This document shows positions 771 through 24,873 of a stretch of 24,873 nt of DNA, in pieces. Both the position numbers and the translations under genes were made by a program. Each line of letters starts with the position of its first letter. The first letter of the stretch is position 1. Source of the stretch: a virus; the UHGV virus genome UHGV-0240820. One strand, 5' to 3'. Below the pieces are notes generated by a model. The model ran no database searches. It saw nothing but the letters and a program-made list of their open reading frames with translations, and was not told where the DNA came from.

Positions 771-810
771 AGTAGATTATGCATGATGAATTTGATGGGT
801 TTTGAATACT

Positions 811-837: not shown

Positions 838-842
838 CATGG

Positions 843-862
843 TACTATTACCACAACGGTAA
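843..862 (+). promoter_or_regulatory. -10-like TACTAT abutting dyad TTACCACAACGGTAA (848-862); candidate late promoter/operator
   Basis: Same hexamer-plus-dyad arrangement as at 21184-21203 on the minus strand. Lies 18 bp upstream of the terminase small subunit start. No good -35 element. Confidence 0.4.
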
Positions 863-879
863 CTATTACCACGGTGGTT

Positions 880-1476
880 ATGATGCCTGCTGAACCTAAA
901 ACCTATAAACGCAAATCAACGCAATTTAAGCCACTAACAGCAATGCAGGAGGCTTATTGCCAGTCATACATCAAAACGCCTGAAAACCAGACTCAGGCAG
1001 CGATTAACGCAGGATTCTCCCCAAATACAGCGGCAGTTAAAGCCAGTCTCATGATGCGCGATGAACGCATTCAAAAACGGATTGCCGAGCTGATGGAAGA
1101 GCGCAACAAACGAATGCGCGTCAGTGCTGATTACGTTCTCATGCGCCTGGTGGAGATCGACCAGATGGACGTGATCGACATCCTCAACGACGATGGGAGC
1201 CTTAAGCCAATCCGCGAGTGGCCGAAAATCTGGCGCACTACGCTTAGTGGCTTTGATCTGTCATCGACCATCATGAACATGAACGAGGATTCGATAGAGA
1301 CAATCCTCAAAAAAATTAAATGGCCTGACAAGGTGAAGAACCTCGAACTGATTGGTAAGCACGTCGACGTCAACGCATTCAAAGAACGCCTGGATGTTAA
1401 TGTGAATGTGACAATTGCTGATCGCATAGCGGCAGCCAGGAAGAGACTGAAAGAACGTCAGGATGGCAATCAGTGA
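880..1476 (+). CDS. terminase small subunit
   Basis: Position immediately upstream of, and overlapping (GTGA), the large subunit. Sequence resembles small-terminase families (from memory). Start placed at ATG 880 (or 883, GGTGG at 873-877); the ORF-track start at 802 is rejected because it spans the terminator and the direct repeat. Confidence 0.7.
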   Translation: MMPAEPKTYKRKSTQFKPLTAMQEAYCQSYIKTPENQTQAAINAGFSPNTAAVKASLMMRDERIQKRIAELMEERNKRMRVSADYVLMRLVEIDQMDVIDILNDDGSLKPIREWPKIWRTTLSGFDLSSTIMNMNEDSIETILKKIKWPDKVKNLELIGKHVDVNAFKERLDVNVNVTIADRIAAARKRLKERQDGNQ

Positions 1477-2948
1477 CAGATACAGCGTTATCTCCTGAAG
1501 AGCAGTTAATCGAGGATATTGCAGGGTTCACTCACGATCCGCTTGGCTATGCCCTCTATGCGTTCCCATGGGGGGAAGAGGGGACTGAACTGGCACATGC
1601 CACCGGCCCACGTCAGTGGCAGGCTGATGCGTTCCGAGAGATACGTGATCACCTGCAGAATCCAGAGACGCGCTATCAGCCGCTTATGCTGGCACGCGCT
1701 TCTGGTCACGGTATTGGTAAATCCGCATTCATCTCAATGCTGATCAACTGGGGCATGTCCACTTGCGAGGATTGTAAGGTCGTGGTGACCGCCAACACCG
1801 ACAACCAGCTACGAACGAAGACCTGGCCGGAAATTATCAAGTGGTCGAACCTTGCTATCACGAAAGACTGGTTTACCTGTACCGCTACCGCGATGTACAG
1901 CAATGACCTAGGGCACGACAAGCGGTGGCGGGCTGACGCAATACCCTGGTCTGAGCACAACACCGAGGCATTCGCCGGACTACACAACGAGCGCAAACGC
2001 ATCATCGTGGTGTTTGATGAAGCGTCGAACATTGCGGATCTGGTGTGGGAAGTTGCCGAGGGTGCGCTTACGGACGAAGACACTGAGATTATTTGGGTGG
2101 CGTTCGGAAACCCTACACGTAACACCGGGCGTTTTCGCGAATGTTTCCGCAAATATAAACACCGCTGGAAAACTGCGCAGATTGACAGCCGGACGGTGGA
2201 AGGCACCAACAAACAGCAGTTGCAGAAATGGGTTGATGACTACGGGGAAGATAGCGACTTCGTTAAAATCCGTGTGCGTGGCATATTCCCTGATGCATCT
2301 GAATTGCAGTTTATCCCTACCGGTCTTACTGACGAGGCAATGAAACGGGTGGTAACCGCTGCGCAGGTTGCACATGCTCCGGTGATAATCGGTGTTGACC
2401 CGGCATATTCAGGCGTTGATGACGCGGTGATATACCTGCGGCAGGGGCTACACAGTAAGGTGCTGTGGACTGGCAACAAGACTACCGACGATCTGATTAT
2501 GGCGAAGCGTATCGCTGACTTTGAAGACCAGTATCAGGCTGACGCGGTGTTCATCGACTTCGGTTACGGAACCGGTTTGAAGTCAATCGGTGACGGCTGG
2601 GGTCGTACATGGCAACTTGTTCCGTTCGGTGGCGCGTCTACTGACCCGCAGATGCTCAACAAGCGTGGGGAGATGTTCAACTCATGCAAGACATGGCTGA
2701 GGCTCGGCGGCATGCTGGATGACCAGGAAACAGCGGACGACCTGTCGACGGCAGAGTACAAAGTTCGCGTGGACGGTAAAATCGTTATCGAACCGAAGGA
2801 AGATATCAAGGAGCGGCTTGGGCGTTCTCCTGGTAAAGGCGATGCGCTACTGCTGACGTTTGCGTTCCCTGTGTCGAAGCGTCTGCGAATTCCCGGGCAG
2901 CAGAACCAGCAAGGCAAGGCCATCACAGATTACGATCCATATGCTTAA
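1473..2948 (+). CDS. terminase large subunit (ATPase + nuclease)
   Basis: 491 aa. Walker A-like GHGIGKS, Walker B-like VVFDEAS, and an RNaseH-like nuclease region (IGVDPAYSG...DDAV). GTG start overlaps the upstream stop. Confidence 0.9.
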   Translation: MTDTALSPEEQLIEDIAGFTHDPLGYALYAFPWGEEGTELAHATGPRQWQADAFREIRDHLQNPETRYQPLMLARASGHGIGKSAFISMLINWGMSTCEDCKVVVTANTDNQLRTKTWPEIIKWSNLAITKDWFTCTATAMYSNDLGHDKRWRADAIPWSEHNTEAFAGLHNERKRIIVVFDEASNIADLVWEVAEGALTDEDTEIIWVAFGNPTRNTGRFRECFRKYKHRWKTAQIDSRTVEGTNKQQLQKWVDDYGEDSDFVKIRVRGIFPDASELQFIPTGLTDEAMKRVVTAAQVAHAPVIIGVDPAYSGVDDAVIYLRQGLHSKVLWTGNKTTDDLIMAKRIADFEDQYQADAVFIDFGYGTGLKSIGDGWGRTWQLVPFGGASTDPQMLNKRGEMFNSCKTWLRLGGMLDDQETADDLSTAEYKVRVDGKIVIEPKEDIKERLGRSPGKGDALLLTFAFPVSKRLRIPGQQNQQGKAITDYDPYA

Positions 2949-3471: not shown

Positions 3472-3496
3472 TAAAAAAATGCCCGGCGAACCGGGC
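3472..3496 (-). terminator. intrinsic terminator (minus strand)
   Basis: On the minus strand: GCCCGG, loop TTCG, CCGGGC, followed by a T7 run (plus-strand A-run 3473-3479). Confidence 0.7.
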
Positions 3497-3659
3497 GAAC
3501 TGGAAGCAATGAGTTATGCCTTCCGTGGCTGTACTGGTTTACAGCATGAAGCCATCGCAATGGCGCCCTGCTGTAAAAAGGGCGGTGATAGTCCTTCAAG
3601 GGAAACCATCACCGCCAAGCCCCTGGAACTTCTGGCATCACGGTCCTTAGGCGTGATTC

Positions 3660-3736
3660 TGGCGTGGCATGCAGGATTCGAACCTGCGACCAACCGCTTA
3701 GAAGGCGGTTGCTCTGTCCAACTGAGCTAATGCCAC
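3660..3736 (-). tRNA. tRNA-Arg (anticodon UCU)
   Basis: Minus-strand 77-nt cloverleaf: acceptor GTGGCAT/ATGCCAC, D stem GCTC/GAGC, anticodon stem ACCGC/GCGGT with loop CTTCTAA, T arm GCAGG-TTCGAAT-CCTGC, discriminator G, encoded CCA. Differs from host argU at several positions (from memory), so it is phage-encoded. Confidence 0.85.
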
Positions 3737-4163: not shown

Positions 4164-4370
4164 ATGTGCATGGGTAGCTCACCATCAGTGCCTGCAACAC
4201 CAGAAGTTCAGGCAGCACCACAGGAGCAGGATGCCGCCGTTGTTGATGCCCGCGACGAAGAAACTCGTCGCCGTCGCGCTGCTGCTGGTCGTAGTTCTAC
4301 GCTGCTTACCGGTTCTCAGGGCGACACATCAACTGCTAATACCAGCGGTAAAACGCTGCTTGGTCAGTAA
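4164..4370 (+). CDS. hypothetical small protein (68 aa)
   Basis: ATG preceded by CGGAGTCATTGA, a 12-nt string identical to the portal translation-initiation region at 4372-4383. Low-complexity Ala/Arg-rich product, so coding status is uncertain. Confidence 0.35.
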   Translation: MCMGSSPSVPATPEVQAAPQEQDAAVVDARDEETRRRRAAAGRSSTLLTGSQGDTSTANTSGKTLLGQ

Positions 4371-4384
4371 CCGGAGTCATTGAA

Positions 4385-6064
4385 ATGGCGGAAACAACTA
4401 AAGAGCGATTGAACAAACAGTTCGCACAACTTGAAAGCGAGCGTCAGTCGTTCGAGCCGCACTGGCGCGAGTTGAGTGATTACATCAACCCGCGTGGTTC
4501 CCGCTTTCTGACTTCTGAGGTTAACCGTAACGATCGACGCAATACACGCATTATTGATTCGACCGGGACTATGGCGGCGCGCACTCTCGCCAGCGGCATG
4601 ATGTCAGGCATCACAAGCCCCGCGCGTCCGTGGTTTCGCCTGGCTACGCCAGATCCTGAAATGATGGATTATGGCCCTGTTAAGTTGTGGCTTGAGGCGG
4701 TGCAGAACCGCATGAACGATATGTTCAATAAGTCGAATCTCTATCAGTCGCTGCCGCAGTTATACGGAAGCCTCGGCACATACAGCACTGGTGCAATGGC
4801 AGTGCTGGAGGATGACGAGGACATCATTCGCACAATGCCATTCCCGATAGGCAGTTACTACCTGGCTAACTCACCTCGTGGCAGTGTGGACACCTGTTTT
4901 CGCAAGTTCTCTATGACTGTTCGTCAGCTTGTTCAGGAGTTCGGGCTAAATAACGTCAGCGAATCCGTAAAAAGCATGTGGGAAAGCGGAACCTACGAGA
5001 AGTGGATTGAAGTGATGCATTCGGTTTACCCGAACATTGACCGCGATACATCGAAGCTGGATAGCAAGAACAAGCCATTCAAATCGGTTTATTACGAGGT
5101 TGGTGGCGATAACGACAAGTTGTTGCGTGAGTCCGGATTCGATGAGTTTCCAATTATGGCTCCGCGCTGGGAAGTTAACGGCGAAGATGTTTATGGATCA
5201 TCATGCCCGGGTATGCTGGCGCTTGGACCTGTTAAGGCATTGCAGCTTCTCCAGAAGCGCAAGTCGCAGTTGATTGATAAAGCCACCAATCCGCCGATGG
5301 TTGCTCCGACTTCCCTCAAGAATCAGCGCGCCTCCCTTCTTCCTGGCGACATCACGTATATCGATCAGATTACTGGTCAGGATGGTTTCAGGCCTGCTTA
5401 TCTGGTTAACCCCAGTACAGCAGATTTGGTGGCAGACATTCAGGACACTCGTCAAATCATTAACAGCGCCTACTTTGTCGATCTGTTCATGATGTTGCAG
5501 AACATCAATACCCGCTCGATGCCTGTTGAAGCGGTGATCGAAATGAAAGAAGAAAAACTTCTGATGTTGGGGCCGGTTCTGGAGCGTCTGAACGACGAAT
5601 GTCTTAATCCTCTCATTGACCGCTCTTTCTCGATGATGGTGCGTAAAAACATGCTGCCGCCACCGCCTGACGCGATGGAAGGCATGCCCCTGAAGGTCGA
5701 ATACATTTCCGTCATGGCTCAGGCGCAGAAGTCTATCGGCCTGTCCAGTCTGGCGTCCACGGTTAACTTCATTGGTCAACTTGCGCAAGCGAAACCAGAA
5801 GCTCTCGACAAACTCAACGTTGATCAGGCGATCGATGCATTCGCTGATATGTCCGGAGTGTCTCCAACCGTCATTGTTCCGCAGGAACAGGTTGAGCAGG
5901 CTCGCCAGCAACGGGCACAGCAACAACAGCAGCAACAAATGATGGCGATGGGGATGGCGGCGGCACAGGGTGCCAAGACGCTAAGCGAAGCTAAAACTTC
6001 GGATCCGAGTGTTTTGTCAGCTATGGCGAATGCAGTTAGTGGTCAGGGTGGGCAATCACAATGA
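4385..6064 (+). CDS. portal protein (podovirus type)
   Basis: 559 aa, located after the terminase genes. Gln/Met/Ala-rich C-terminal tail (QQRAQQQQQQQMMAMGMAAAQGA) resembles the T7 gp8 C-terminus as I recall it. Confidence 0.85.
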   Translation: MAETTKERLNKQFAQLESERQSFEPHWRELSDYINPRGSRFLTSEVNRNDRRNTRIIDSTGTMAARTLASGMMSGITSPARPWFRLATPDPEMMDYGPVKLWLEAVQNRMNDMFNKSNLYQSLPQLYGSLGTYSTGAMAVLEDDEDIIRTMPFPIGSYYLANSPRGSVDTCFRKFSMTVRQLVQEFGLNNVSESVKSMWESGTYEKWIEVMHSVYPNIDRDTSKLDSKNKPFKSVYYEVGGDNDKLLRESGFDEFPIMAPRWEVNGEDVYGSSCPGMLALGPVKALQLLQKRKSQLIDKATNPPMVAPTSLKNQRASLLPGDITYIDQITGQDGFRPAYLVNPSTADLVADIQDTRQIINSAYFVDLFMMLQNINTRSMPVEAVIEMKEEKLLMLGPVLERLNDECLNPLIDRSFSMMVRKNMLPPPPDAMEGMPLKVEYISVMAQAQKSIGLSSLASTVNFIGQLAQAKPEALDKLNVDQAIDAFADMSGVSPTVIVPQEQVEQARQQRAQQQQQQQMMAMGMAAAQGAKTLSEAKTSDPSVLSAMANAVSGQGGQSQ

Positions 6065-7069: not shown

Positions 7070-8056
7070 ATGGCTGTTAAAGGCTTAACTGCGCTAACGC
7101 TGGCTGACTGGGGTAAGCGCGTCGATCCAAACGGGAAAGTCGATAAGATTATCGAGCTTCTCGGTCAAACTAACCCGATCCTTCAGGATATGCCTTTTGT
7201 CGAAGGGAACCTTCCTACCGGACACCGAACCACCATTCGTTCTGGTTTACCTTCAGCTACCTGGCGTTTGCTGAACTATGGCGTACAGCCAAGCAAATCA
7301 ACCACAGTGCAGGTAACCGATTCCGTTGGCATGCTGGAAACCTATGCGGAAGTCGATAAGTCACTGGCTGATCTGAACGGCAATACCGCCGAATTCCGCC
7401 TGTCTGAAGACCGCGCATTTATTGAAGCGATGAATCAGCAGATGGCGCAGACGCTGTTTTATGGTGATTCCAGCGTTAACCCTCAGCAGTTTATGGGACT
7501 GTCCTCCCGCTATTCCAGCCTGTCTGCGGGTAATGCTCAGAACATCATTGATGCTGGTGGCACGGGTACAGATAACACCTCAATCTGGTTAGTGGTGTGG
7601 GGCGAAAACACCGTGCATGGCATCTTCCCGAAAGGGAAGAAGGCTGGCATCCAGATGGAAGATAAAGGCCAGGTGACACTGGAAGATGCTAATGGCGGCA
7701 AGTACGAAGGTTATCGCACCCATTACAAATGGGACAACGGACTTGCTCTGCGTGACTGGCGTTATGTTGTTCGCATTGCAAACATCGATGTCAGCAATCT
7801 TTCAGAACCATCCTCTGCCGCAAATATTGCCAAGTTGATGGTTAAGGCACTGCATCGCATTCCAAACCGTGGCATGGGCCGCCCGGTGTTCTACATGAAC
7901 CGCACTGTAGGCCAGGCTCTTGATCTGCAATCTCTGGAGAAAACATCTCTGGCTATCAGCGTAAAAGAGACTGAAGGCGAGTGGTGGACTTCATTCCGTG
8001 GTGTACCAATCCGTGAAACTGATGCGCTTCTGGAAACAGAAGCCCGCGTGGTGTAA
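7070..8056 (+). CDS. major capsid protein
   Basis: ~328 aa, after the scaffold gene and before a hairpin. Start placed at ATG 7070 (GAGG 7058-7061 at 8 nt spacing); alternative ATG at 7064. Confidence 0.75.
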   Translation: MAVKGLTALTLADWGKRVDPNGKVDKIIELLGQTNPILQDMPFVEGNLPTGHRTTIRSGLPSATWRLLNYGVQPSKSTTVQVTDSVGMLETYAEVDKSLADLNGNTAEFRLSEDRAFIEAMNQQMAQTLFYGDSSVNPQQFMGLSSRYSSLSAGNAQNIIDAGGTGTDNTSIWLVVWGENTVHGIFPKGKKAGIQMEDKGQVTLEDANGGKYEGYRTHYKWDNGLALRDWRYVVRIANIDVSNLSEPSSAANIAKLMVKALHRIPNRGMGRPVFYMNRTVGQALDLQSLEKTSLAISVKETEGEWWTSFRGVPIRETDALLETEARVV

Positions 8057-8107
8057 CGCCTGTTATTAACCTGTGGGTCGTAACAGACCCACTAATGGAG
8101 AAAGAAG

Positions 8108-8545
8108 ATGATCACCGACAAACTGTTGATGTTCTCCGAAGCTCAGGCGGTTACGAATACCGCGGCTTCTACTGACGTAATCGACCTCGGTCCAATTGAC
8201 GGAAAACGTCGTGATATCGGCGTGGGTTACCCGCTTGAGTTTTGGGCGCTGGTTAACGCAGCCGCCGCGGCAAGCGGTGATGCAACTGTAAACATCCAGT
8301 TGCAGACGAGTGAGAATAACAGCTCATGGACCACTATTTATGATAGTGGCGCACTGGCAAAGACCGCCCTGACAGCAGGTAAACGAGTTGTTTCTGCAAA
8401 GGTGCCTGCCGGTGTTCAGCGATATCTGCGTGTTAACTACTCCGTCGCAACTGGCCCACTAACGGCTGGCAAATTCACTGCGGGTATCAGTCTGGATGTT
8501 GATGCCAATACGCCGTACCCGATCCGCTCAAAAGTAACTGGTTAA
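8108..8545 (+). CDS. hypothetical virion protein (145 aa), possibly a capsid accessory/decoration protein
   Basis: GGAG at 8097-8100. Gly/Ala/Thr/Val-rich, beta-rich composition. Function is by position only. Confidence 0.5.
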   Translation: MITDKLLMFSEAQAVTNTAASTDVIDLGPIDGKRRDIGVGYPLEFWALVNAAAAASGDATVNIQLQTSENNSSWTTIYDSGALAKTALTAGKRVVSAKVPAGVQRYLRVNYSVATGPLTAGKFTAGISLDVDANTPYPIRSKVTG

Positions 8546-8555
8546 GGTGATATCG

Positions 8556-8891
8556 ATGTCAGGTGAGAAACCAAGATACCGCGTTCTGCGCCTCTCTCAT
8601 ATCCATAACACTCTGTGGCCGGAGGGGGCAGAAATCGAATACGAAGGTGAGCCTGGTAGCGCACTGGAACCTGTTAACGATGCAGCCAGACAGGCAAAAG
8701 CAAAAGTTGCAGGAAAGGTGTCAATGGCAGCAACCAGCACCAAAATCATCAACGATATGTCAGATGATGGTGAACTGGATAAGCTCCGTGAAGAGTACGA
8801 ATTGCTCTTTAACGAGAAGCCACACCATAACGCCAAAGCCGAAACGCTACGCGAGAAGATCGCAGATAAGCGTAAAGAACTGGGCGTGTAA
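8556..8891 (+). CDS. hypothetical protein (111 aa)
   Basis: ATG 8556 preceded by AAGGTGA (8544-8550); the ORF track's upstream GTG at 8547 would sit inside that RBS. Followed by a strong terminator. Confidence 0.5.
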   Translation: MSGEKPRYRVLRLSHIHNTLWPEGAEIEYEGEPGSALEPVNDAARQAKAKVAGKVSMAATSTKIINDMSDDGELDKLREEYELLFNEKPHHNAKAETLREKIADKRKELGV

Positions 8892-8908
8892 GCCTCGCGA
8901 ATCAGACA

Positions 8909-8931
8909 AGGGGCTTCGGCCCCTTTATTGC
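8909..8931 (+). terminator. intrinsic terminator after the capsid gene block
   Basis: AAGGGGC (8909-8915), loop TTCG, GCCCCTT (8920-8926), followed by TTTATTG. Confidence 0.7.
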
Positions 8932-8947
8932 AGGAGTATAGAAACTT

Positions 8948-9553
8948 ATGGCCTCTGTAGTAGAGATCTGCAATCGTGCGCTGTCCAATATTGGCAACAG
9001 CCGCAGTATTAACAGCCTGACGGAAGCCAGCAAGGAAGCGGGGGAATGTTCGCTGCACTTTGAGGCCTGCCGTGATGCTGTGCTTTCTGATTTTGACTGG
9101 AACTTTGCTACCAAACGCGTGGCGCTTGCAGATACGAACAATCCACCGCCTGACTGGGAATATGCGTACCAGTACCCGTCCGATTGTCTGCGCATTACTG
9201 AAATTATGCTTCCTGGTGTACGCAATCCAACAGCAGCAATGCGCGTTCAGTACGAAGTTGGTGCAGACACCAACGGAACAGGAAAGTTGATCTACACAGA
9301 CCAGCCGCAGGCATGGCTCAAGTATGTATCTCGCGTTACAGATGTGAACATGTTTGATGCCATTTTTATGGAGGCGTTGGCCTGGCGTCTTGCGGCAGCT
9401 ATTAACATGGCGCTGACTGGGAATGCAGACCTCGGTACGTTTGCCCTCAATATGTACAATCGCGTGATTCTTAGTGCTGGCTCGCATAGCCAGAATGAAT
9501 CACAGGAACCACTGCCACCGGTTGACGAGTTTACCATTGCGAGGTTGTCCTGA
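8948..9553 (+). CDS. tail tubular protein A-like (adaptor/gatekeeper, T7 gp11-like)
   Basis: 201 aa (T7 gp11 is ~196 aa). N-terminal pattern N-x-x-L-S-x-I-G...W-x-F resembles gp11 as recalled. AGGAG RBS. Sits directly before the 823-aa gene. Confidence 0.6.
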   Translation: MASVVEICNRALSNIGNSRSINSLTEASKEAGECSLHFEACRDAVLSDFDWNFATKRVALADTNNPPPDWEYAYQYPSDCLRITEIMLPGVRNPTAAMRVQYEVGADTNGTGKLIYTDQPQAWLKYVSRVTDVNMFDAIFMEALAWRLAAAINMALTGNADLGTFALNMYNRVILSAGSHSQNESQEPLPPVDEFTIARLS

Positions 9554-12024: not shown

Positions 12025-12488
12025 TGATCGATGTTCAAATTATTCCCGCAACCGAAGAGCATCTTCAGATGATTTTGCCGGATGTTCGTCAGGCTGATAT
12101 TGACGAACTGTATGCGGTATCACTGATGACTACCGAAGATGCGCTGCGTGTTGGTCTGCGTACTGCGACTATGGCCTGGTCAGGATTTGCGAACGGAGAA
12201 CTGGTAACCATGTTTGGCGTATCTCCGGCGTCAATGATCGGTGGCAATGGTACGCCCTGGCTGGTCGGAACCAGCCGCATCGAAAAATATCAGAAGACAT
12301 TTCTTCGCCACTGCCGCCCTGTATTGCAGCAGATGCTGGCAGTTTATCCGCGCCTGGAAAACTATGTCGACGAGCGAAACCATGTTGCCAAAGCATGGCT
12401 GCACTGGCTTGGATTCAGGCTTGAAGAAGCCGCTCCTTATGGTGCTCTTGGTCTTAATTTCCACAGATTTCACATGGAGAGAAAATAA
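12024..12488 (+). CDS. internal virion protein candidate (gp13 position)
   Basis: 154 aa, translationally coupled (TGATG); position matches T7 gene 13. No motif recognised. Confidence 0.45.
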   Translation: MIDVQIIPATEEHLQMILPDVRQADIDELYAVSLMTTEDALRVGLRTATMAWSGFANGELVTMFGVSPASMIGGNGTPWLVGTSRIEKYQKTFLRHCRPVLQQMLAVYPRLENYVDERNHVAKAWLHWLGFRLEEAAPYGALGLNFHRFHMERK

Positions 12489-13054
12489 TGTGTAACCCAG
12501 CCATCGCTTTGGTTGCCGTCACAGTGGCATCCACAGCCGCGTCAATGTACAGCCAGAGCAAGCAGGCAAAATACCAGTCAGCCATAGCTGATCGGAATGC
12601 TGAAATTGCTGAAGCTCAGGCACAGGATTCAATCAATCGTGGGAATATTGAAGCGGATCAGCGTCGTCGTGAAATGCGTCAACGCTCAGGCACTGCGGCG
12701 GCCACTATGGGGGCTACCGGTGCGGAATTAAGTAGCGGAACAGCTCTTGACGTTTTTGCGGATAATGCTCAGTTCGGCACTCTTGATGCGTTAACGACAG
12801 TGAATAATGCTCAGCGTGAGGCATATGGGTATCAGGTTCAGGGAATGAATGCTCAGGCACAGGGGGCTGCTGCTCAGTCGGCTGCTAAATCATCGATGAC
12901 CAGCACTTTGTTAACGGCACCACTAAAAGCATACGGTGCATATAAGTTGGGTAGCGGAAGTATCAATCCGATTAGTAAGCAAGGAAACACGCCAATGTTA
13001 TCTAACTCAGGTTTTATGAATTCTGACTCCCGATTCAAAATAGGAGGTTATTGA
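12488..13054 (+). CDS. internal virion protein B-like (T7 gp14-like)
   Basis: 188 aa; N-terminus MCNPAIALVAVTVASTAAS resembles T7 gp14 (MCWAAAIPIAISGAQA, from memory); Ala/Gln-rich. Confidence 0.6.
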   Translation: MCNPAIALVAVTVASTAASMYSQSKQAKYQSAIADRNAEIAEAQAQDSINRGNIEADQRRREMRQRSGTAAATMGATGAELSSGTALDVFADNAQFGTLDALTTVNNAQREAYGYQVQGMNAQAQGAAAQSAAKSSMTSTLLTAPLKAYGAYKLGSGSINPISKQGNTPMLSNSGFMNSDSRFKIGGY

Positions 13055-15801
13055 TGCCTGTTGTTCCTACTACATCCGGACGCCAGGTGCAAAGTCGTGG
13101 TGTGCAAACCGGTGGTTTTCAGACCTTCGATGTTCCTCAAGCAGGTCAGGTGCTGGCGAATGTCGCAGATCAGTATGCGGTGGCATATGGTGAAGCCAGG
13201 CAGAAAGCGAATGTTGCTATGGCCCAGGAGGCGTTACTGCAATTTAACCAATTTGCAGATGACCAGATTAACAACCCTGAAAATGGGCTGATTTCTAAAC
13301 AGGGTAAAAACGCTCTTGGTCAGAGTGACGCTGTTATGAAAAATATGCAGGAAAGGGCTCAGGCATTATTAGGCTCAATTCCTGAAAGTGAGGAAAGGAA
13401 TAAATTATCCTTTCAACTCCAGCAGTCTATGCAGTCTTATTACAATCAGGCACGTCGATATGAAGTTGGGCAGTTTCAGCAATTCCAAGATCAAACGTAT
13501 TTGTCAGGAAATGCATTGGCTGTCACTCAGTCTGCGGGGCTATATAGCGATAACCAAGCATTTGTCGATTTAGCCAAGCAGCGATTTGAATCTATTGATC
13601 AATACGCTGATGCGCATGGGCTTCCTGATGGGTGGCGTGTTCAGCAGAAAACTCAGCTCAAGGAACAAATGGGGCAGCAAGCATGGATAGGAAATATCGC
13701 TCAAAAATACAACGAGTTTCTTCAGGTTAATGGAGAGCCAGGGGATCTTGATGGTGTGAGTCGTGCAATATCACATGGTAATTCATTGGATGCTCGTGGT
13801 TTACGTAATAATAACCCTGGTAATATTGAAGCGAGCAAATCTAACCCGTGGGAAGGTCAGATCGGTAGCGATGGACGTTTTGCAACGTTTGCTACCCCTG
13901 AGCATGGAATCCGCGCGTTGGGTAAAAATATGTTGTCTTACCAGCGTCAAGGCTATGACACCGTTAGCGAGATTGTTAATCGCTATGCTCCGGCTAGTGA
14001 TGGTAATAATACTGATGCTTATATTAGGGCATTGTGTGGTGAGCTTGGTGTTGGGGAGAATGATCAGCTTGATATCTCTAACCCAAAGACACTAGCTGCT
14101 TTATGTGCTGGGATTATTAAACACGAAAATGGCAGTATGCCTTATAGCACCGAACAGCTTGAAACTGGTATCTCGGCAGCCCTTGGTCTAACTAACCTTG
14201 ATTCACCTAAGCGTTATACGGGCAATGCGGCATTTGATGCTATGAGCCCTCAAATGCAAATACAGGCATTGAGGCAGGCTAATGAGCTGAGAAATCAGTA
14301 CCGCCAGCAGTATGCGGACCAGCTTAGCACCGTAGTTAAAGATGCATATTCAGCCCTTGATGAAGGATTGAAACCTGAGCAGTTACCTTCTGAGGACGAT
14401 TTTATCCGGGCCAATGGTCCGCGCATTGGCGCTATGAAGTGGAAGGATATGCAGGCGCAGATACAATATGGAGGTGTCATTGGTGCCGCTAAAGACCTCA
14501 CTCCAGAAGGACGACAAGACATTCTTGAACGTTTACGTCCACAGGATCCAAACGCTCCTGGATTTGCAGCTAACCAGCAACGCTGGGAGAAAATGCAGGC
14601 CAAATTTAAAGAGATGGATAGGGAGTGGGAGATTCAGCAGGGAAGAAACAGGTTCGTGTCTTCAATGCAAAATAACTTCCCGCTGGACCCGAACGACAAA
14701 AACAATCAGGCAGCGGTAGACCGTTATTTCGCGCAGGATATCGCGCCTTCGTTTTCCATATCTGATCCGCAGAGCATCAATACACTGGTCACCGTCACAA
14801 CTAAAAGCGGCATGATACCAACTCAGGTTAAAACAATGCTTAACAGTGGAGCAACATCAAGAGATCCTGCGCTGGTTGTCCCGATGGCAAAATTCTACGG
14901 TCAGTTATTCGATAATAATCCGGCGGCAGCGGCAACACTTGATAAAAGTACGATGGCATTTTACGGCAAGGTTTACGATTATTCCCGCGCTGGCGTGCCG
15001 GAGGATAAGGCTGTTGATATGGCTTACAGCCAGGTGTTCCAACAGGATGACCGAATGAAACAGATGCTTTCCACTGCCATGCGAGACAAAAAATATGTCG
15101 CGGCGAGGGCAACTGCTGCACAAAATAACGCCAGCAGTCTGACTTCCTTTGGTTCGTGGTCTCCGGATATTACCGATCCAGGAAAATCAAATGCGGCCTA
15201 TCAGCGAGATTACCAGACAATTTACGATGCTAACTTTGTACAGACAGGTGGCGATGCAGAACAGGCTGAGAAAATGACCAATGCCATGATCAGAACCACC
15301 TGGGGAGTTTCTACGGTTAATGGCAAAGCAGAGGTTATGAAGTATGCACCTGAGGCATTGTACGGAGTAAATAATGGTGCTGGTAACTGGATACAGGGGC
15401 AGTGGGAGCAGGAAAAACGCGAGCTTAAATCAAAATCCTTTGGCGGTCCTCGCAGTGATACGGACTTAATACTTGTTTCTGATGGCCTTACGGCAAGGGA
15501 TAGGAGTTATGCTGTTATGGTTTTACAGCCTGACGCAAACGGAGCGATAGAACCGAGAAATTATATTGGAGAAAATGGTCTCCCTGTTCGTTTCAAGCCG
15601 GATCAGCTGACATCTCCAATGTACAGGCAAACCATTCAGTTCCAGCAACAGCGTGTTGATGAGGCTAGAGTGCGGAGAGAAGGCAATCCGCTGCCGCAGT
15701 TCAGCAATAAAGATGGATATACTCCTCCAGATCTGACCAAACCATTCGGTTATGGTTCAGCCAATTACCTTCCGAGCAATATATACGCAGGGGGCAAATA
15801 A
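13054..15801 (+). CDS. internal virion (core/ejection) protein C-like (gp15 position)
   Basis: 915 aa; ATG 13054 preceded by AGGAGG (13042-13047); coupled to neighbours on both sides. Confidence 0.55.
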   Translation: MPVVPTTSGRQVQSRGVQTGGFQTFDVPQAGQVLANVADQYAVAYGEARQKANVAMAQEALLQFNQFADDQINNPENGLISKQGKNALGQSDAVMKNMQERAQALLGSIPESEERNKLSFQLQQSMQSYYNQARRYEVGQFQQFQDQTYLSGNALAVTQSAGLYSDNQAFVDLAKQRFESIDQYADAHGLPDGWRVQQKTQLKEQMGQQAWIGNIAQKYNEFLQVNGEPGDLDGVSRAISHGNSLDARGLRNNNPGNIEASKSNPWEGQIGSDGRFATFATPEHGIRALGKNMLSYQRQGYDTVSEIVNRYAPASDGNNTDAYIRALCGELGVGENDQLDISNPKTLAALCAGIIKHENGSMPYSTEQLETGISAALGLTNLDSPKRYTGNAAFDAMSPQMQIQALRQANELRNQYRQQYADQLSTVVKDAYSALDEGLKPEQLPSEDDFIRANGPRIGAMKWKDMQAQIQYGGVIGAAKDLTPEGRQDILERLRPQDPNAPGFAANQQRWEKMQAKFKEMDREWEIQQGRNRFVSSMQNNFPLDPNDKNNQAAVDRYFAQDIAPSFSISDPQSINTLVTVTTKSGMIPTQVKTMLNSGATSRDPALVVPMAKFYGQLFDNNPAAAATLDKSTMAFYGKVYDYSRAGVPEDKAVDMAYSQVFQQDDRMKQMLSTAMRDKKYVAARATAAQNNASSLTSFGSWSPDITDPGKSNAAYQRDYQTIYDANFVQTGGDAEQAEKMTNAMIRTTWGVSTVNGKAEVMKYAPEALYGVNNGAGNWIQGQWEQEKRELKSKSFGGPRSDTDLILVSDGLTARDRSYAVMVLQPDANGAIEPRNYIGENGLPVRFKPDQLTSPMYRQTIQFQQQRVDEARVRREGNPLPQFSNKDGYTPPDLTKPFGYGSANYLPSNIYAGGK

Positions 15802-18800: not shown

Positions 18801-19190
18801 TCAATGGTCTATATGATGAAACAGAAGTTAAGCGGTCGCGATATTGACTACAGCTGGAATAACCTTGTGAAAGAGGGGATCGACCGGGGCGGAATGCTTG
18901 GCTGGCTCTCTGAGCCGCTGAATACCGTTGAGAACATAAGCGGTGGTAGGTTTGGTCTTGGCGCGATGTTTGGTGCGCCTCCGGTATCAAGGTTTCAGAG
19001 TCGTAATGCTATTGGTGCTTTACTTGGTCCTACCTTTGATCTTGGCGGTGATGCCGCGACGGTTGCGAATGGTGTACTTAACGGAGAATTTGACAGCCAG
19101 CAAACCCACGCGGTCCGTAAAATGCTACCTTTTCAGAACCTGTGGGCGATATCACCATTACTAAATAAAGTTGAAGAGCAGATGAAATAG
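15801..19190 (+). CDS. internal virion (core/ejection) protein D-like (gp16 position)
   Basis: 1129 aa, coupled (TAATG). Gly/Ala-rich segment near residues 120-200 resembles a T7 gp16 segment as recalled; no N-terminal transglycosylase motif seen. Confidence 0.55.
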   Translation: MPIYEQDPKELLGEDIQQIAAPDDSNFYMETPSLLSAVNPFTSDQRVQRSRQAAFRIDNTLGSFIASAPFSQFDRVEGYNPFDNDAADIKGYEDFADSFINSGSPEETMAIKHRIDQQRADMEYNSGLGFAGTVSSVAMRLADPFNAISMFIPFGAVVRGGRIAETAGRFALANAAGSVASEAALQATQEARSAMESVSNVVVDALVGGILGAGAQLLAGPGAREAVVNSVGNHLRGMDSPQSIGAAQVFNTTLDQEQLAGLGLANKTLSVTPAGRLAQSPSLVSRQINQQLAENNYFFAKNDEGLATFTAVETKIKQYDAMLYKQMEATRDAYQQYSKSVSARGVKRMNFIDFNEAVGMAMRRGDQSDIPEVSQAAARIRPIFETTKARMQELGILPKDIDVVTAKSYLPRIYKFDKILSDRTEFRGRIANWIQGISAKGADKAGQRIERINSLLKTAEESAPRADALASEIAEAEKWSGKKILLMEELDKRNKLISQETDTQARLTRIEKELAETSSEKLQARMMKESSDLKTRLDDIAQAKSELPVYQRHMELLDNPRKYRSELRRLQKRANSTTRLNASRERALKQMEPLSREEAEDAADEIVNKIIGAPSGLVPADIIPERLVGRAGFTKSRTLLIPDERIEDFLESDVNYIMESYLRQVAPEIELTAQFGRKDMGEQIRQVSEEYTRLIKEAKTPKRRAVLEKQRAADIRDITAMRDRLLGTYGAPQDPRSFFVRAGRVARNINFLRLLGGMTVSAATDLMRPMMQHGLRKSLGPMVSMLKNMDSVKIATRDLREMAVGLDYVLSTRTKAIADLTDPYSRRSAAERGLNWMTQKFGNWTLMNQWNSALKSWSGMIVQSRILDAARQVSAGGTLSKSEMRKMAQVGINEDVLRRIGEQFGKHGEDMDGLLTGHSHLWDDRFAREIFQSAVLKDVDSVIVTPGVGDTPLFFSKEGWKMITQFKTFIFAQHNRVLVSGIQQGDAAFYLGALGTIALGSMVYMMKQKLSGRDIDYSWNNLVKEGIDRGGMLGWLSEPLNTVENISGGRFGLGAMFGAPPVSRFQSRNAIGALLGPTFDLGGDAATVANGVLNGEFDSQQTHAVRKMLPFQNLWAISPLLNKVEEQMK

Positions 19191-19191
19191 G

Positions 19192-20043
19192 ATGAAAAAA
19201 ATAAATTTGTTTTTTGGCATAGTGCTTTCAATAGTCTCTGTAAATCCTACAGCTGCCAGTTCATTGCAATGCAATAAGGATAACTTTGATGCATGCAAAA
19301 CGTGTGAACAATTATCAAAGGCTATCGACTTAAAAGAACCTAATCGTGGCGATTACTATAGAGGGGCTTTATGGAATGGGCTTTACGCCTCTTATGTAAT
19401 TAATTGCCCTGTGGTTGCTGAGAAGTTACTGAGCCATGGTGCTATACCATCATATGGCGGATATATGGGGTCTATGGGGGCGGTTCTGACAGGAAAATGG
19501 CCTCATAACAATGAATCAATAAATCTTTCATGGGCAGATTTGCTTATAAAACATGGATTTGATGTTAATAGGCATACGGGGAATTATAAATCAGCTACTG
19601 AAGTATGGGCTATAGATAAAAAACAGATTGAATATAAGTCAGTTTTTGACAAGTTAATTCAATCCAGCGAAGTAAAACCACTCGATCCTTCAAGAAATTT
19701 AGAATGGTGTGCGTCTGAAGGGTATCGCTCAGTTGTCGTTTATTCCCTTAACTCATGTATAGAAAATGCTATAAAACGTTTGGATGATGGTGTTTCTTCA
19801 GCGTCTGATATTTCATCAGCAGCCGTAAATTCCTGTACTAGCGATGTAGAAAATTTCAATAAGCATTTGGCATGCAAAGCAGCTGTTAAAGAAAACTCTG
19901 ATAAAGAGAGAAGCGACGTTTACCAGTTATTAACCAGTGATAGTCAAATGAATAAAAATGTTATTGATATGCTGAAGGAAAGAAATATTGAAACGGTTCT
20001 TGAATTTAGAGCTGAAAATCGATCAGCGAAAACTGCACAGTGA
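19192..20043 (+). CDS. secreted protein of unknown function (283 aa, AT-rich moron)
   Basis: N-terminal signal peptide (MKKINLFFGIVLSIVSVNPTAAS), about 10 Cys, AT-rich codon usage unlike the structural genes. Start is 1 nt after the gp16-like stop. Confidence 0.6.
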   Translation: MKKINLFFGIVLSIVSVNPTAASSLQCNKDNFDACKTCEQLSKAIDLKEPNRGDYYRGALWNGLYASYVINCPVVAEKLLSHGAIPSYGGYMGSMGAVLTGKWPHNNESINLSWADLLIKHGFDVNRHTGNYKSATEVWAIDKKQIEYKSVFDKLIQSSEVKPLDPSRNLEWCASEGYRSVVVYSLNSCIENAIKRLDDGVSSASDISSAAVNSCTSDVENFNKHLACKAAVKENSDKERSDVYQLLTSDSQMNKNVIDMLKERNIETVLEFRAENRSAKTAQ

Positions 20044-20049
20044 TCAAAC

Positions 20050-20074
20050 AGGCCGCTTTCGCGGCCTTGTTTTT
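20050..20074 (+). terminator. intrinsic terminator
   Basis: AGGCCGC, loop TTTC, GCGGCCT, followed by TGTTTTT. Confidence 0.75.
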
Positions 20075-20234
20075 AACGAATGCCACCGCCGCCCGGGCGG
20101 GAATCCGCAGAACGCCCACCGCAGCGGGAGCCGTCAGCAGCAGTGTCGCTGTCGTGCTGACAACGACCGGCAAAGGCCTGAGTTGAAGCTACCAGAGACA
20201 ACAAAACGAACAGTGCAGCAAATGCTTTTTTCAT
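20073..20234 (-). CDS. small exported peptide candidate (53 aa)
   Basis: Internal Met of ORF 20073-20306 starts a classic signal peptide (MKKAFAALFVLLSLVASTQAFAG) followed by a 30-aa Gly/Arg/Asp-rich tail with 2 Cys. GC-rich, in contrast to its flanks. Confidence 0.35.
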   Translation of the reverse strand: MKKAFAALFVLLSLVASTQAFAGRCQHDSDTAADGSRCGGRSADSRPGGGGIR

Positions 20235-20315
20235 TGTGAAATTTCCATCTATAAGCCACCTCAATGTGGCGTCAATGAGTGTAGCACTGACTTTTGTTTC
20301 GTCCATAAAAAACTA

Positions 20316-20828
20316 CTATGCAGGCTTTTTGGATTTGTACGAATAATCCCACGGATAAACATTTCTACTAAGTGGAGCTGTATTCGTTCGTTCATGAAAT
20401 AATTTTGTGAAATTCAATACGGAATCCATCCAAACTTTTGCGTTAGCTTTGGTGTGTGCGGGCGGGTCCCAATAAGCTAGTAAGGCTGCATCTCTTATTT
20501 CATTGACTGCATATATGAGATATGCGTTACTGGTTGGTTTTGGCCTGTAATTTCCTTGTTCATCAATCAATCCATATGACCACTCATCCCAACACTGTTC
20601 AGTACATGAGTATGAATATGATGCATATTCACCAATATTGACATGAACCTTTCTGAGATGGAAGCCTAATACTTCGTCTGGTCTTTCAAAAAGAGTATCT
20701 TTTCCCAGATCAGGATGATGACCATGACGCCAGTGTTGTTTAAAAGCATCTTTTAGCGAAATCAGAAAGTCATCAGTTTTAAACTCACCAGTAGGTATAA
20801 CCTTCCCGCTATACTCACTCAAAAACAT
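20316..20828 (-). CDS. hypothetical protein (170 aa); candidate toxin/effector of a two-gene module
   Basis: Strong RBS (AGAGGA at 5 nt spacing). His cluster (HWRHGHH) and a Cys/Trp-rich segment (YSCTEQCWDEW). Start overlaps the upstream gene's 3' end by 14 nt. AT-rich. Confidence 0.55.
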   Translation of the reverse strand: MFLSEYSGKVIPTGEFKTDDFLISLKDAFKQHWRHGHHPDLGKDTLFERPDEVLGFHLRKVHVNIGEYASYSYSCTEQCWDEWSYGLIDEQGNYRPKPTSNAYLIYAVNEIRDAALLAYWDPPAHTKANAKVWMDSVLNFTKLFHERTNTAPLSRNVYPWDYSYKSKKPA

Positions 20829-21141
20829 CGAATTCCTCTTCCTTCATATGCGTTTCTAATGAGTTAAGCTGGCGGAAAGATATCTCTTTTGATTCTGCAG
20901 ATGAGAGCTTTTTTATCCGCTTGATATTCTTTGTGATAGGAATAGACATTGTATGCACATCAGCGGATGCTCTTGGCTTTGTGCTGATAAAAATATGGCG
21001 CAATGCCGCATTTTCACTATTGAACGAGCCAATAGCTGATTTACGTGCTACAACCTTACCAGTAAAAATACGACTCTTGCTACGCTTTGCATGAGTTCCG
21101 CTTCTTACCGGACCTCTCATCACGAATCCAAGTTTTGTCAT
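20815..21141 (-). CDS. hypothetical basic protein (108 aa); candidate partner (antitoxin/regulator?)
   Basis: GGAG RBS. Arg/Lys-rich N-terminal half and acidic C-terminus (HMKEEEFDVFE). First gene of the overlapping pair. Confidence 0.5.
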   Translation of the reverse strand: MTKLGFVMRGPVRSGTHAKRSKSRIFTGKVVARKSAIGSFNSENAALRHIFISTKPRASADVHTMSIPITKNIKRIKKLSSAESKEISFRQLNSLETHMKEEEFDVFE

Positions 21142-22326: not shown

Positions 22327-23055
22327 ATGGAAGTTTTCTGGATAGTTGTTGGTGTGGTTGCGGTGATTATTTACGTTATCAACCAGAACAAGACTAAGAT
22401 CTCTGATCGTACGGTCGTTAATCATAACAAAACGATAAAGACCGAAGATGGGGAGATAACGATTAATCGTACACAGGTGATAGAACACACCTCTACTCAG
22501 TTTCAAAAAACTGGAGGTAATGCGCCTAATATTTCCGCACCTCCTGCTTATGATAGTGCGGTAATCCAGACATATTATAAACAGCAGGAGTTAGCAAAAG
22601 AGAGGCAACTGATTCAGCCAAAGCCATTTACAGCAGAGCTTCCACATGGAGTGTCAACGCGTCCGGCATATCATGGAAGATTCCCTGGTGATGACACATC
22701 GTCTCAGTCACCTAAAAAAGCACCTCAGGCAGTATCAGAGCCAGCAAGAATACCTTCTGTATCGCCGTCAAAAGAAGAATCAGCTAACGAAGTTTCAAGT
22801 GCCCGCAAGCAGTGTTTGCGATGCAGAATAACCCTTCCATATGAAAAATTCAGGAAATCGTCAAAAAATCCAGATGGATTGACTAAGTGGTGTGCAAGGT
22901 GTCTCGATGGCCCAAAGAATACACGCCATATGAAGTGGTGCCCAATTTGTAATGTCCGCAGAAAACGAACCAGTTTTTACCCTAATAATCAAAATGCGGA
23001 TGGCTTAATGGCATGGTGCAAAACGTGCTGGGACGAGCACAAAGCGAAACGATAG
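22327..23055 (+). CDS. membrane-anchored protein with C-terminal tandem zinc-ribbon-like repeats (242 aa)
   Basis: N-terminal TM helix (FWIVVGVVAVIIYVI), Pro/Ser/Gln-rich linker, then two repeats of C-x2-C ... DGL ... WC-x2-C. GAGGA RBS. AT-rich. Followed by a terminator. Confidence 0.6.
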   Translation: MEVFWIVVGVVAVIIYVINQNKTKISDRTVVNHNKTIKTEDGEITINRTQVIEHTSTQFQKTGGNAPNISAPPAYDSAVIQTYYKQQELAKERQLIQPKPFTAELPHGVSTRPAYHGRFPGDDTSSQSPKKAPQAVSEPARIPSVSPSKEESANEVSSARKQCLRCRITLPYEKFRKSSKNPDGLTKWCARCLDGPKNTRHMKWCPICNVRRKRTSFYPNNQNADGLMAWCKTCWDEHKAKR

Positions 23056-23079
23056 GCCGCTCTTGCGGCCTTTTCTTTA
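23054..23079 (+). terminator. intrinsic terminator
   Basis: AGGCCGC, loop TCTT, GCGGCCT, followed by TTTCTTTAT; nearly identical to the terminator at 20050-20074. Confidence 0.7.
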
Positions 23080-23529: not shown

Positions 23530-24786
23530 ATGACGGTCTCAACCGAAGTTGACCACAACGAATACACCGGTAACGGCGTTACGACATCGTTTCCGTATAC
23601 TTTTCGAATTTTCAGAAAATCAGACCTGGTTGTTCAGGTGTCTGATCTGAACGGAAACGTAACAGAATTGGTCCTGGATACCGGTTATACGGTAACTGGG
23701 GCGGGCACTTATAGTGGCGGTTCTGTGGTTCTTCCGTCTCCGCTTGCTACTGGATGGCGAATTACGATAGATCGTGTGCTTGATGTAGTGCAGGACACAG
23801 ACCTTCGCAATCAGGGAAAATTTTTCCCCGAAGTGCATGAAGATGCCTTTGACTACCTGACGATGCTGATCCAGCAATGTTTTGGGTGGTTCAGACGTGC
23901 ATTGATGAAACCATCTTTGCTTGCAAAATATTACGATGCAAAGCAAAACAAAATTTCTAACCTTGCAGATCCATCATTTGAGCAGGACGCTGTAAATAAT
24001 CGCTCAATGCGTAATTATGTCGATGCTGCAATCGCCGGAGTTGTTGGTGGTTTTGGTTGGTTTATTCAGTATGGTTCTGGGGCTGTGTACCGAACGTTCC
24101 AGGATAAAATGCGTGATGCTATTAGCCCCAAAGATTTTGGAGCTGTTGGTGATGGTATAAATGACGATTCCACTGCAATAAGCGCGTGCCTTGAAGCCTC
24201 ATCTCCAGGTTATAAAATTGACGGATTAGGGCTTACTTTTAAAGTATCAACTCTTCCGGATGTCAGTCGATTTAAAAATGCTCGTTTTTTATTTGAGAGA
24301 ATACCGGGCCAGCCTCTTTTTTATGCTTCTGAAGATTTTATCCAGGGAGAGTTATTTAAAATTACAGATACACCGTGGTACAACGCCTGGACGCAGGATA
24401 AAACGTTTGTATATGACAATGTCATCTATGCGCCTTTTATGGCTGGAGACCGCCATGGTGTAAATAACCTCCATGTTGCATGGGTTCGCTCAGGAGATGA
24501 CGGGAAGACCTGGACAACGCCGGAATGGCTTACAGATTTACATGAAAACTATCCCACAGTTAACTATCACTGCATGAGTATGGGGGTTGTCAGAAATCGC
24601 CTTTTTGCTGTAATTGAGACGCGGACCGTGAGAGGAAATAAACTGCAGGTTGCAGAGTTGTGGGATCGCCCAATGAGTCGCAGCCTTCGCGTTTATGGTG
24701 GTATAACGAAAGCAGCAAATCAGCAAGTCGCTTATATTCGCATTACTGATCACGGATTGAACCGCCCCGGGAATCCTGGAGACTAA
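23530..24786 (+). CDS. tail spike/fiber protein, 3'-disrupted by IS insertion
   Basis: GGAG RBS. N-terminal ~140 aa resemble the T7 gp17 particle-binding domain (from memory). DFGAVGDGINDD motif and an Asp-box SGDDGKTW (24491-24514). From ~24758 the reading frame runs into IS terminal sequence; the last ~9 codons and the stop are IS-derived. Confidence 0.7.
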   Translation: MTVSTEVDHNEYTGNGVTTSFPYTFRIFRKSDLVVQVSDLNGNVTELVLDTGYTVTGAGTYSGGSVVLPSPLATGWRITIDRVLDVVQDTDLRNQGKFFPEVHEDAFDYLTMLIQQCFGWFRRALMKPSLLAKYYDAKQNKISNLADPSFEQDAVNNRSMRNYVDAAIAGVVGGFGWFIQYGSGAVYRTFQDKMRDAISPKDFGAVGDGINDDSTAISACLEASSPGYKIDGLGLTFKVSTLPDVSRFKNARFLFERIPGQPLFYASEDFIQGELFKITDTPWYNAWTQDKTFVYDNVIYAPFMAGDRHGVNNLHVAWVRSGDDGKTWTTPEWLTDLHENYPTVNYHCMSMGVVRNRLFAVIETRTVRGNKLQVAELWDRPMSRSLRVYGGITKAANQQVAYIRITDHGLNRPGNPGD

Positions 24787-24873
24787 ACTTCCTGAGAAAG
24801 AGGTAAACAGGATGACTAAAAATACTCGTTTTTCCCCTGAAGTCCGTCAACGGGCAGTCCGTATGGTTCTGGA
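24758..24873 (+). mobile_element. IS3-family insertion sequence, left end (IS629-like), continues beyond the window
   Basis: Terminal sequence TGAACCGCCCCGGGAATCCTGGAGACTAAACTTCC followed by an OrfA start; identified from memory, not by search. Confidence 0.65.
24812..24873 (+). CDS. IS3-family transposase OrfA, N-terminal fragment (truncated by window)
   Basis: MTKNTRFSPEVRQRAVRMVL matches the N-terminus of IS629/IS1203-type OrfA as I recall it. AAGAGG RBS upstream. Confidence 0.7.
   Translation, partial: MTKNTRFSPEVRQRAVRMVL

Follow-up and report, generated by a model that had tools for sequence, protein, structure and literature searches.

The window analyzed here is a stretch of 24,873 nucleotides (nt) of the virus genome UHGV-0240820. 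Directly after the genes for its internal virion proteins, it carries a gene for a protein of 283 amino acids (aa) that has a signal peptide and two domains. It is highly probable that this is a secreted, non-structural accessory protein that acts at the cell envelope. Judging from sequence and gene context, we tentatively favor the reading that it is a periplasmic inhibitor of the Enc34-type peptidoglycan hydrolase injected by related phages, by which it could confer superinfection exclusion. The observations behind this proposal are export signals, the domain architecture, a conserved synteny, and a repeated link between the N domain of the protein and Enc34-type hydrolases.

Export signal and domain architecture

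The 283-aa open reading frame (ORF) starts with ATG, 1 nt downstream of the TAG stop codon (19188–19190) of the gp16-like gene. An initial annotation of the window, made from the sequence alone, had described a 283-aa protein with a signal peptide that starts 1 nt past the gp16-like stop, which was borne out by the ORF coordinates and by the regions of the N-terminus. The N-terminus reads MKKINLFFGIVLSIVSVNPTAAS followed by S, and has the n-, h- and c-regions of a Sec signal peptide. Its segments are MKK, INLFFGIVLSIVSV, and NPTAAS with S after the cut, and they correspond to a signal peptidase I substrate with a positive n-region, a hydrophobic h-region of 10–15 residues, and small residues at −3 and −1. 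Signal-peptide prediction had been suggested as a check in the initial annotation, and by a simple heuristic the Sec-type features were retained in 14 of 14 family members despite their diverged sequences. No other hydrophobic segment was found in the protein.

A lipoprotein was also considered and was rejected because there is no lipobox ([LVI][ASTVI][GAS]C). The residues before the first cysteine (C27) are SLQ in E. coli, LAK in Morganella, and AGQ in Serratia, none of which forms a lipobox. The protein is cysteine-rich as initially annotated, with eight cysteines (C27, 35, 38, 72, 173, 189, 215 and 228) rather than about ten, and all eight were invariant across 14 homologues, down to 39% identity.

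A profile search of 1.84 billion representative proteins divided the protein into two modules (Table 1), each of which also exists alone as a secreted protein. The sole match of the ORF in PHROGs was phrog_6118, whose function is unannotated. Neither the ORF nor its stand-alone homologues matched a family in Pfam, NCBIfam or PADLOC, and a profile of the full-length protein against solved structures gave only weak coiled-coil and DARPin matches. Literature searches on the RefSeq accession, and on prophage inhibitors of virion hydrolases, found no earlier description. By these comparisons, neither the N domain nor the C domain appears to belong to a described family.

The N-domain profile matched true ankyrin proteins, including ankyrin proteins in the PDB at E values of 3e-4 to 4e-3. 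The Pfam Ank models gave no match at E ≤ 0.01 for the ORF or for its stand-alone homologues. The N domain is thus best described as putatively ankyrin-derived and highly diverged. It differs from the canonical Ank clan in having ~2–3 degenerate repeats, four conserved cysteines, and the family motifs WNGLY and KWPHNN. Structure prediction, another suggested check, yielded an AlphaFold model with predicted local distance difference test (pLDDT) scores of 50–80 for the N domain and >90 for the C domain, which was modelled as a helical bundle. The C-domain motif LDDGxSxASDI sits between two conserved cysteines, and searches of the PDB, Pfam, NCBIfam and PADLOC gave no match for this domain.

Association of the N domain with Enc34-type hydrolases

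In the window, the gp15-like protein encoded in the same operon as the ORF carries a hydrolase domain, located 5 kilobases (kb) upstream of the ORF. This domain matched the Enc34 endolysin (PDB 7q47) with an E value of 4.5e-16 and 9vvp_L with an E value of 3e-36. The muralytic activity of the Enc34-type hydrolase family has been experimentally shown (PMC8943055). Every full-length homologue of the secreted protein that we examined was in a prophage whose gp15-like protein carries the hydrolase domain, namely in prophages of E. coli, of the Klebsiella type, in L074, and of the Morganella/Providencia type (L numbers denote fetched loci). Phage EC.W1-9 has a hydrolase segment identical to that of the window. 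In phage TL-2011b, an SLT domain occupies the hydrolase position of gp15, and the gene for the secreted protein is absent.

The N domain was also found as a stand-alone protein in Bdellovibrionota genomes. We searched every fetched locus for the Enc34-type hydrolase domain, and 12 of the loci with a stand-alone N domain had usable flanks. An Enc34-type hydrolase gene was close to the N-domain gene in seven of these 12 loci, and in six the two genes adjoined or lay within ~0.5 kb (Table 1). The hydrolase domain of the L010 tape-measure protein was 40% identical to that of gp15. Four partner architectures were seen (hydrolase–DUF3892, stand-alone hydrolase, tape-measure fusion, and gp15-like), and the Enc34-type domain was their only common part. 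In the stand-alone pairs (L011, L012, L013, L073, L106 and L107/L108), the hydrolases had no signal peptides and the N-domain proteins had them. As predicted from their sequences, these pairs have the layout of an effector with a periplasmic immunity protein. Conserved pairs of a hydrolase and a secreted ankyrin-like protein occur in metagenome genomes of Bdellovibrionota and other proteobacteria, where they may form an undescribed effector–immunity family.

Outside phages, the stand-alone pairs resemble effector–immunity modules, and orphan immunity genes are common on mobile elements. Both points favor another explanation, in which the prophage protein is an orphan immunity protein against Enc34-type toxins of competitors, such as type VI effectors, and lysogenic conversion serves interbacterial competition. 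The type VI effector Tae5 points in the same direction and also supports the hydrolase link of the favored reading, as its N-terminal part is reported to match the Enc34 endolysin and it is encoded with immunity proteins that have signal peptides (PMC13340143). However, all full-length genes are neighbours of the ejection genes of the phage itself, which include the hydrolase domain, and this synteny holds across genera. We regard immunity to bacterial toxins as unlikely for the prophage protein.

The slot after gp16, its transcription and the surrounding prophage

The window is an E. coli prophage of a temperate podovirus that resembles epsilon15, phiV10 and TL-2011b and whose core (ejection) proteins are of the T7 type. 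It matched the prophage of E. coli IHE3034 (O18:K1), prophages of many other strains, and the sewage phage EC.W1-9, which has been grouped with phiV10 and TL-2011b, phages of the genus Uetakevirus (epsilon15-like) (10.1101/2024.06.28.601134). The initial annotation had compared the position of the gene with T7-like phages, in which the tail fibre gene normally comes next. The virus is not a classical T7-like phage but a temperate epsilon15-like podovirus, whose ejection genes and tailspike gene are separated by an antirepressor region that includes a YafO-family toxin gene.

The ORF was present in 106 of 5426 complete E. coli genomes (~2%), always on the chromosome, including K1 strains, extraintestinal pathogenic E. 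coli (ExPEC), and avian pathogenic E. coli (APEC). Full-length homologues were found in Klebsiella, Serratia, Morganella and Providencia, and also in EC.W1-9. Wherever the context was recovered (L007–L009, L042–L050 and L074), the gene directly followed the gp16-like gene. In the Morganella/Providencia-type prophages, the ORF was 39–41% identical to that of the window, compared to 52–56% for gp16 and 44% for gp15. A recent foreign insertion was rejected on the grounds of synteny conserved at ~40% identity, and the gene is an old resident of a variable slot. The guanine and cytosine (GC) content of the ORF was 0.369 (0.282 at third codon positions, GC3), compared to 0.483 for both the gp16-like gene and the whole window. 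In every lineage examined, the occupant of the slot after gp16 was 9–17 points lower in GC than gp16, so the low GC goes with the slot and is no sign of recent import. The gene is therefore AT-rich, as first annotated, but the foreign origin read from this composition was not upheld, given the same slot at 39–41% identity.

Comparison with relatives that lack the gene, which had likewise been suggested, showed that unrelated or membrane proteins fill the slot in relatives. A Klebsiella phage with a gp16 of 92% identity encodes an unrelated 204-aa protein in place of the ORF. In TL-2011b, the slot is filled from the opposite strand by a gene for a membrane-anchored protein. Small polytopic membrane proteins are encoded there in two other E. 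coli elements, and two secreted proteins in L020. In L050 (5360–5540), the gp16 stop codon is followed by a hairpin and then by ~70 nt similar to the end of another gp16 allele on the 3' side (compare L007, 7900–7969). This stretch is a fossil recombination joint and shows that the secreted-protein gene moved along with a fragment of the gp16 tail.

Because the ORF comes straight after the core-protein genes and is read from their strand, its product might be taken for an extra ejection protein of the virion or for a lysis protein. Cytoplasmic virion assembly is, however, hard to reconcile with a cleavable signal for Sec export and with four disulfide pairs that are conserved. In addition, an unrelated gene replaces the ORF next to a 92% identical gp16, and relatives are encoded antisense to the late operon (see below). 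No homology of the ORF to core-protein families of the T7 gp14/15/16 type was found, phrog_6118 being its sole match. A lysis gene was rejected, as the ORF matched no holin, endolysin or spanin family and the lysis cassette (holins, GH19 endolysin and Rz-like protein) is elsewhere, downstream of the tailspike gene in complete prophages. Both roles are very improbable. Secretion and replacement by an unrelated gene agree with a non-structural protein, in line with the periplasmic moron that the initial annotation had proposed.

The protein might also be a general envelope, fitness or virulence factor unlinked to hydrolases, such as a periplasmic scaffold, a periplasmic binding protein, or a protein that inhibits host lysozyme. 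The lack of a family annotation, the presence of the gene in ExPEC, APEC and K1 strains, and the many kinds of partners bound by ankyrin folds are consistent with such a factor. However, the gene tracks the phage structural module and not the pathotype, being found also in prophages of Klebsiella, Serratia, Morganella and Providencia and in EC.W1-9, and a general factor would leave the hydrolase link unexplained. We consider it quite unlikely, and nothing was found that points to the virulence role listed in the initial annotation.

The gene is on the same strand as the core-protein genes, in the late-operon orientation initially assigned to it. It was also said to end at a strong terminator, and the hairpin has a free energy of −16.8 kcal/mol (z = −3.98 compared to shuffled sequences), which confirms this. 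A sigma-70-like promoter scoring at least 9/12 was not found in the 500 nt upstream of the ORF, where a relaxed scan gave nothing above 8/12, and no Shine–Dalgarno sequence of good quality at normal spacing was found before the ORF. Because neither was found, translational coupling of the ORF to the gp16-like gene is plausible here. In Morganella, 31 nt that include a GAGG ribosome-binding site separate gp16 from the ORF, and in L050 the gap is ~176 nt and contains a hairpin; the coupling is therefore not conserved. The coupling proposed initially is thus plausible for the E. coli/Klebsiella lineage and does not extend to the other lineages. An identical stem, AGGCCGC-N4-GCGGCCT, closes two cargo genes of the window, at 20050–20067 after the ORF and at 23054–23071 after a gene for a 242-aa protein (22327–23055); the two matches in the window compare to none in shuffled sequence.

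The late-operon orientation, the 1-nt gap and the lack of a promoter of its own in the window would also fit a role in the lytic cycle. A protein made late could neutralize hydrolase activity in the periplasm, either that of sibling virions that adsorb late (lysis from without) or, in some lineages, that of an Enc34-type endolysin, so that the cell is protected or lysis is correctly timed. The 158-aa endolysin of the Morganella prophage (L007, 12247–12723) is itself of the Enc34 type and 43% identical to the gp15 hydrolase domain. In such prophages, the secreted protein could also encounter the endolysin that the same phage encodes. In the IHE3034 prophage, by contrast, the endolysin is a GH19 enzyme and not of the Enc34 type. 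Genes related to the C domain that run opposite to the late operon or come after a CI-like repressor gene, and the hairpin between gp16 and the gene in L050, also speak against a lytic role, which we think improbable.

These C-domain relatives are genes that encode the C domain alone. In L020/L021, the gene is in the same slot after the gp16-like gene. In L051, L052 and L053, it lies immediately ahead of the tail fibre gene and converges on the 3' end of the gene for a giant phrog_9880 protein; it is antisense to the late operon there, next to the last giant internal-virion gene. The L017 copy comes after a CI-like repressor gene, on the same strand. Such arrangements imply that these genes are transcribed independently, probably from the prophage, and argue against a structural role. 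BLASTP found no similarity between the core proteins of the window and the giant BPP-1-like protein beside the C-domain genes, and therefore the link of the C domain rests on gene position only. The L053 contig (1–5870) comes from a BPP-1-like phage and encodes a diversity-generating retroelement that comprises Mtd, bAvd and a reverse transcriptase. Its C-domain-only gene lies between the gene for the giant internal protein and the tail fibre genes, and an Enc34-type hydrolase gene is found at 450–1124.

Table 1 Coordinates of the features in the window and of the hydrolase/N-domain gene pairs in other loci.
Sequence	Feature	Coordinates	Strand	Remarks
Window	T7 gp14-family core protein	12488..13054	+	
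Window	gp15-like ejection (internal virion) protein, 916 aa	13051..15801	+	Proposed source of the target domain
Window	Enc34-type (PHA02564) peptidoglycan hydrolase domain, residues ~246–380 of the gp15-like protein	13786..14190	+	Invariant Glu in KHENG motif
Window	gp16-like large internal virion protein, 1129 aa	15801..19190	+	Stop 1 nt before ORF start
Window	Coding sequence of the secreted two-domain protein, 283 aa	19192..20043, stop codon included	+	phrog_6118; WP_001555613.1 / WP_000723561.1 in RefSeq genomes
Window	Sec-type signal peptide, ~residues 1–23	19192..19260	+	Predicted cleavage after TAA or AAS; no lipobox; read from sequence
Window	N domain, ~residues 24–160	19261..19671	+	Ankyrin-like repeats, 4 invariant Cys, motifs GDYYRGAxWNGLY and KWPHNN
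Window	C domain, ~residues 161–283	19672..20040	+	Helical bundle, 4 invariant Cys, motif LDDGxSxASDI, basic tail
Window	Intrinsic terminator (hairpin and T-run) between convergent genes	20050..20077	.	AGGCCGC-TTTC-GCGGCCT; starts 6 nt past gene end
Window	Small membrane-anchored protein gene, convergent with the ORF	20073..20306	-	PGAP calls a 53-aa version
L012	219-aa hydrolase–DUF3892 gene overlapping the N-domain gene start	7342-8477		Overlap ATGA
L073	Hydrolase and N-domain genes	159-1310		Co-directional
L011	Hydrolase and N-domain genes	7917-9258		Convergent, 3' ends overlapping
L013	Hydrolase and N-domain genes	4283-5498		Convergent, 3' ends overlapping
L106	Hydrolase and N-domain genes	457-2175		~0.5 kb apart; DUF4258 gene between
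L107/L108	N-domain gene, then overlapping 178-aa stand-alone Enc34-type hydrolase gene	L107 2003-3054		
L010	N-domain gene closing a long-tailed phage tail cluster			Tape-measure protein with hydrolase domain 3.4 kb away

Besides the gp14-family core protein and the large gp15-like (916 aa) and gp16-like (1129 aa) internal proteins, the window encodes portal and capsid proteins, a protease, a Bbp16-type cement protein, a capsid staple protein, an 823-aa tail protein, the antirepressor and YafO-family toxin, and an endosialidase tailspike. The small membrane-protein gene that converges with the ORF (20073–20306) recurred with its adjoining terminator at 95–99% identity in ~400 further E. coli genomes without the rest of the region, and looks like a highly mobile cargo cassette common to different prophages. 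The YafO-family toxin gene (20316–20828) overlaps by 14 nt the end of the upstream gene for a 108-aa protein (20815–21141, phrog_5933), both on the minus strand, and the two genes are probably a toxin–antitoxin system in the antirepressor region. A second YafO-family copy is nearby in IHE3034 and IMT16316. The 242-aa protein (phrog_6762, 22327–23055, plus strand) has a C-terminal zinc-ribbon region that matched endonuclease VII, HNH and Lar-like restriction-alleviation families, and may be anti-restriction or nuclease cargo. A gene for transfer RNA-Arg (anticodon TCT) is located inside the prophage (3660–3736, minus strand), between the terminase and portal genes, where it overlaps a listed ORF (3479–3730).

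The endosialidase tailspike gene (23530–24873) is shortened, as its frame stops at 24786 after 418 aa, compared to 1039 aa in IHE3034. The IHE3034 and EC.W1-9 prophages are homologous to the window only up to 24758 in the tailspike region, and the sequence past this point opens an ORF reading MTKNTRFSPEVRQRAVRMVLE, which we take to resemble OrfA of an IS3-family transposase. If so, this prophage copy makes no working tailspike. The GenBank record of EC.W1-9 (L001, PP445227.1) has integrase, repressor and RecT genes annotated at 29430–30680, and the preprint that proposes this phage for therapy use says that integrase genes are absent (10.1101/2024.06.28.601134).

Proposed function and its implications

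In the mechanism that we propose, the Sec pathway would export the protein to the periplasm, where four disulfides would stabilize its fold. The ankyrin-like N domain would bind and inhibit the Enc34-type hydrolase domain in the gp15-like protein of an incoming related phage, and with its hydrolase inhibited this phage would fail to open the cell wall and to assemble its DNA-delivery channel. Superinfection would thereby be excluded, and the cell might also be protected from lysis from without. As a further, podophage-linked module, the C domain may act on the gp16-like large internal virion protein. We infer the binding, the inhibition, the exclusion phenotype and the timing of expression. 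Exclusion was among the possible roles named in the initial annotation, and it is the function that the hydrolase link and the slot favor.

Known systems resemble parts of this mechanism. T4 Spackle (gp61.3) inhibits the gp5 tail lysozyme and thereby causes exclusion (PMC7677548). Like the protein proposed here, it is phage-encoded, has a signal peptide, and is a small helical periplasmic protein, and the logic against the hydrolase of a superinfecting virion would be the same. In P22, sieA is located between gene 16, the last ejection gene, and gene 9 for the tailspike, and SieA targets incoming ejection proteins (PMC10883804). Both genes share the slot between the last ejection gene and the tailspike gene, are dispensable, are present in part of the lineage only, and have divergent sequence types. 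However, SieA is a polytopic inner-membrane protein and is not homologous to the soluble periplasmic protein described here, whose ORF translation lacks the SieA motif FxRYPxEAxxFNK (PMC10883804). The ejection proteins also differ, being of the T7/epsilon15 type here and P22 gp7/20/16 for SieA.

Periplasmic ankyrin proteins that serve in self-protection or immunity by inhibiting envelope-attacking enzymes have been described in Bdellovibrio (Bd3460; PMC4686830) and Enterobacter (Tli; PMC11470151). As is proposed here, a periplasmic ankyrin-type fold neutralizes an envelope-degrading enzyme in these systems, and its gene is beside that of the enzyme. The targets of Bd3460 and Tli are a DD-endopeptidase and a phospholipase, whereas the target proposed here is an Enc34-type glycosidase. 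Compared to both proteins, the N domain is highly diverged, disulfide-stapled and fails the Pfam Ank models, and it is likened to them by fold.

Several observations weigh against exclusion by hydrolase inhibition. The N domain was modelled only at pLDDT 50–80, and its structural matches to ankyrin proteins were weak. A hydrolase neighbour was missing from five of the 12 stand-alone N-domain loci, but L015 and L016, the hydrolase-negative loci with the longest flanks, carry frameshifted copies. L011, L012, L013, L073 and L106 represent one conserved two-gene module, so that there are fewer independent events than loci. A Klebsiella phage has the same hydrolase domain without the gene, and in E. 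coli the gp15 hydrolase segment was found in 119 genomes compared to 106 for the ORF, leaving ~13 without an ORF match. No lysogen promoter was found in the window and the gene looks co-transcribed with the late genes, a timing that fits classical prophage exclusion poorly. Finally, nothing explains the C domain.

A broader version of the exclusion proposal, which we put forward as a doubtful speculation, would treat the N domain as an unrecognized family of periplasmic immunity proteins, ankyrin-derived and stapled by disulfides, that act specifically on Enc34-type (PHA02564) peptidoglycan hydrolases. It would serve bacteria, Bdellovibrionota-like lineages among them, in effector–immunity modules. 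Temperate podoviruses would have captured it and joined it to the C domain, a second periplasmic module particular to podophages. In the incoming T7-type ejection machinery, the resulting two-part exclusion protein would disarm both the gp15-like hydrolase and the gp16-like or giant internal protein.

Exclusion and the inhibition of wall hydrolases are already known as functions, and the novelty would be in the protein family, the target enzyme family and the setting in temperate podoviruses. If the proposal is true, it would provide temperate short-tailed phages with a T4 Spackle-like exclusion mechanism that acts on the T7-type ejection machinery. Enc34-type lysins, now under study as antibacterials (PMC8943055), would gain their first family of inhibitors, and a new hydrolase/immunity module would be indicated in environmental bacteria. 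For phage therapy, carrier strains could resist phages that depend on an Enc34-type hydrolase, and EC.W1-9, which has been proposed for therapy, carries the gene together with an annotated integrase.

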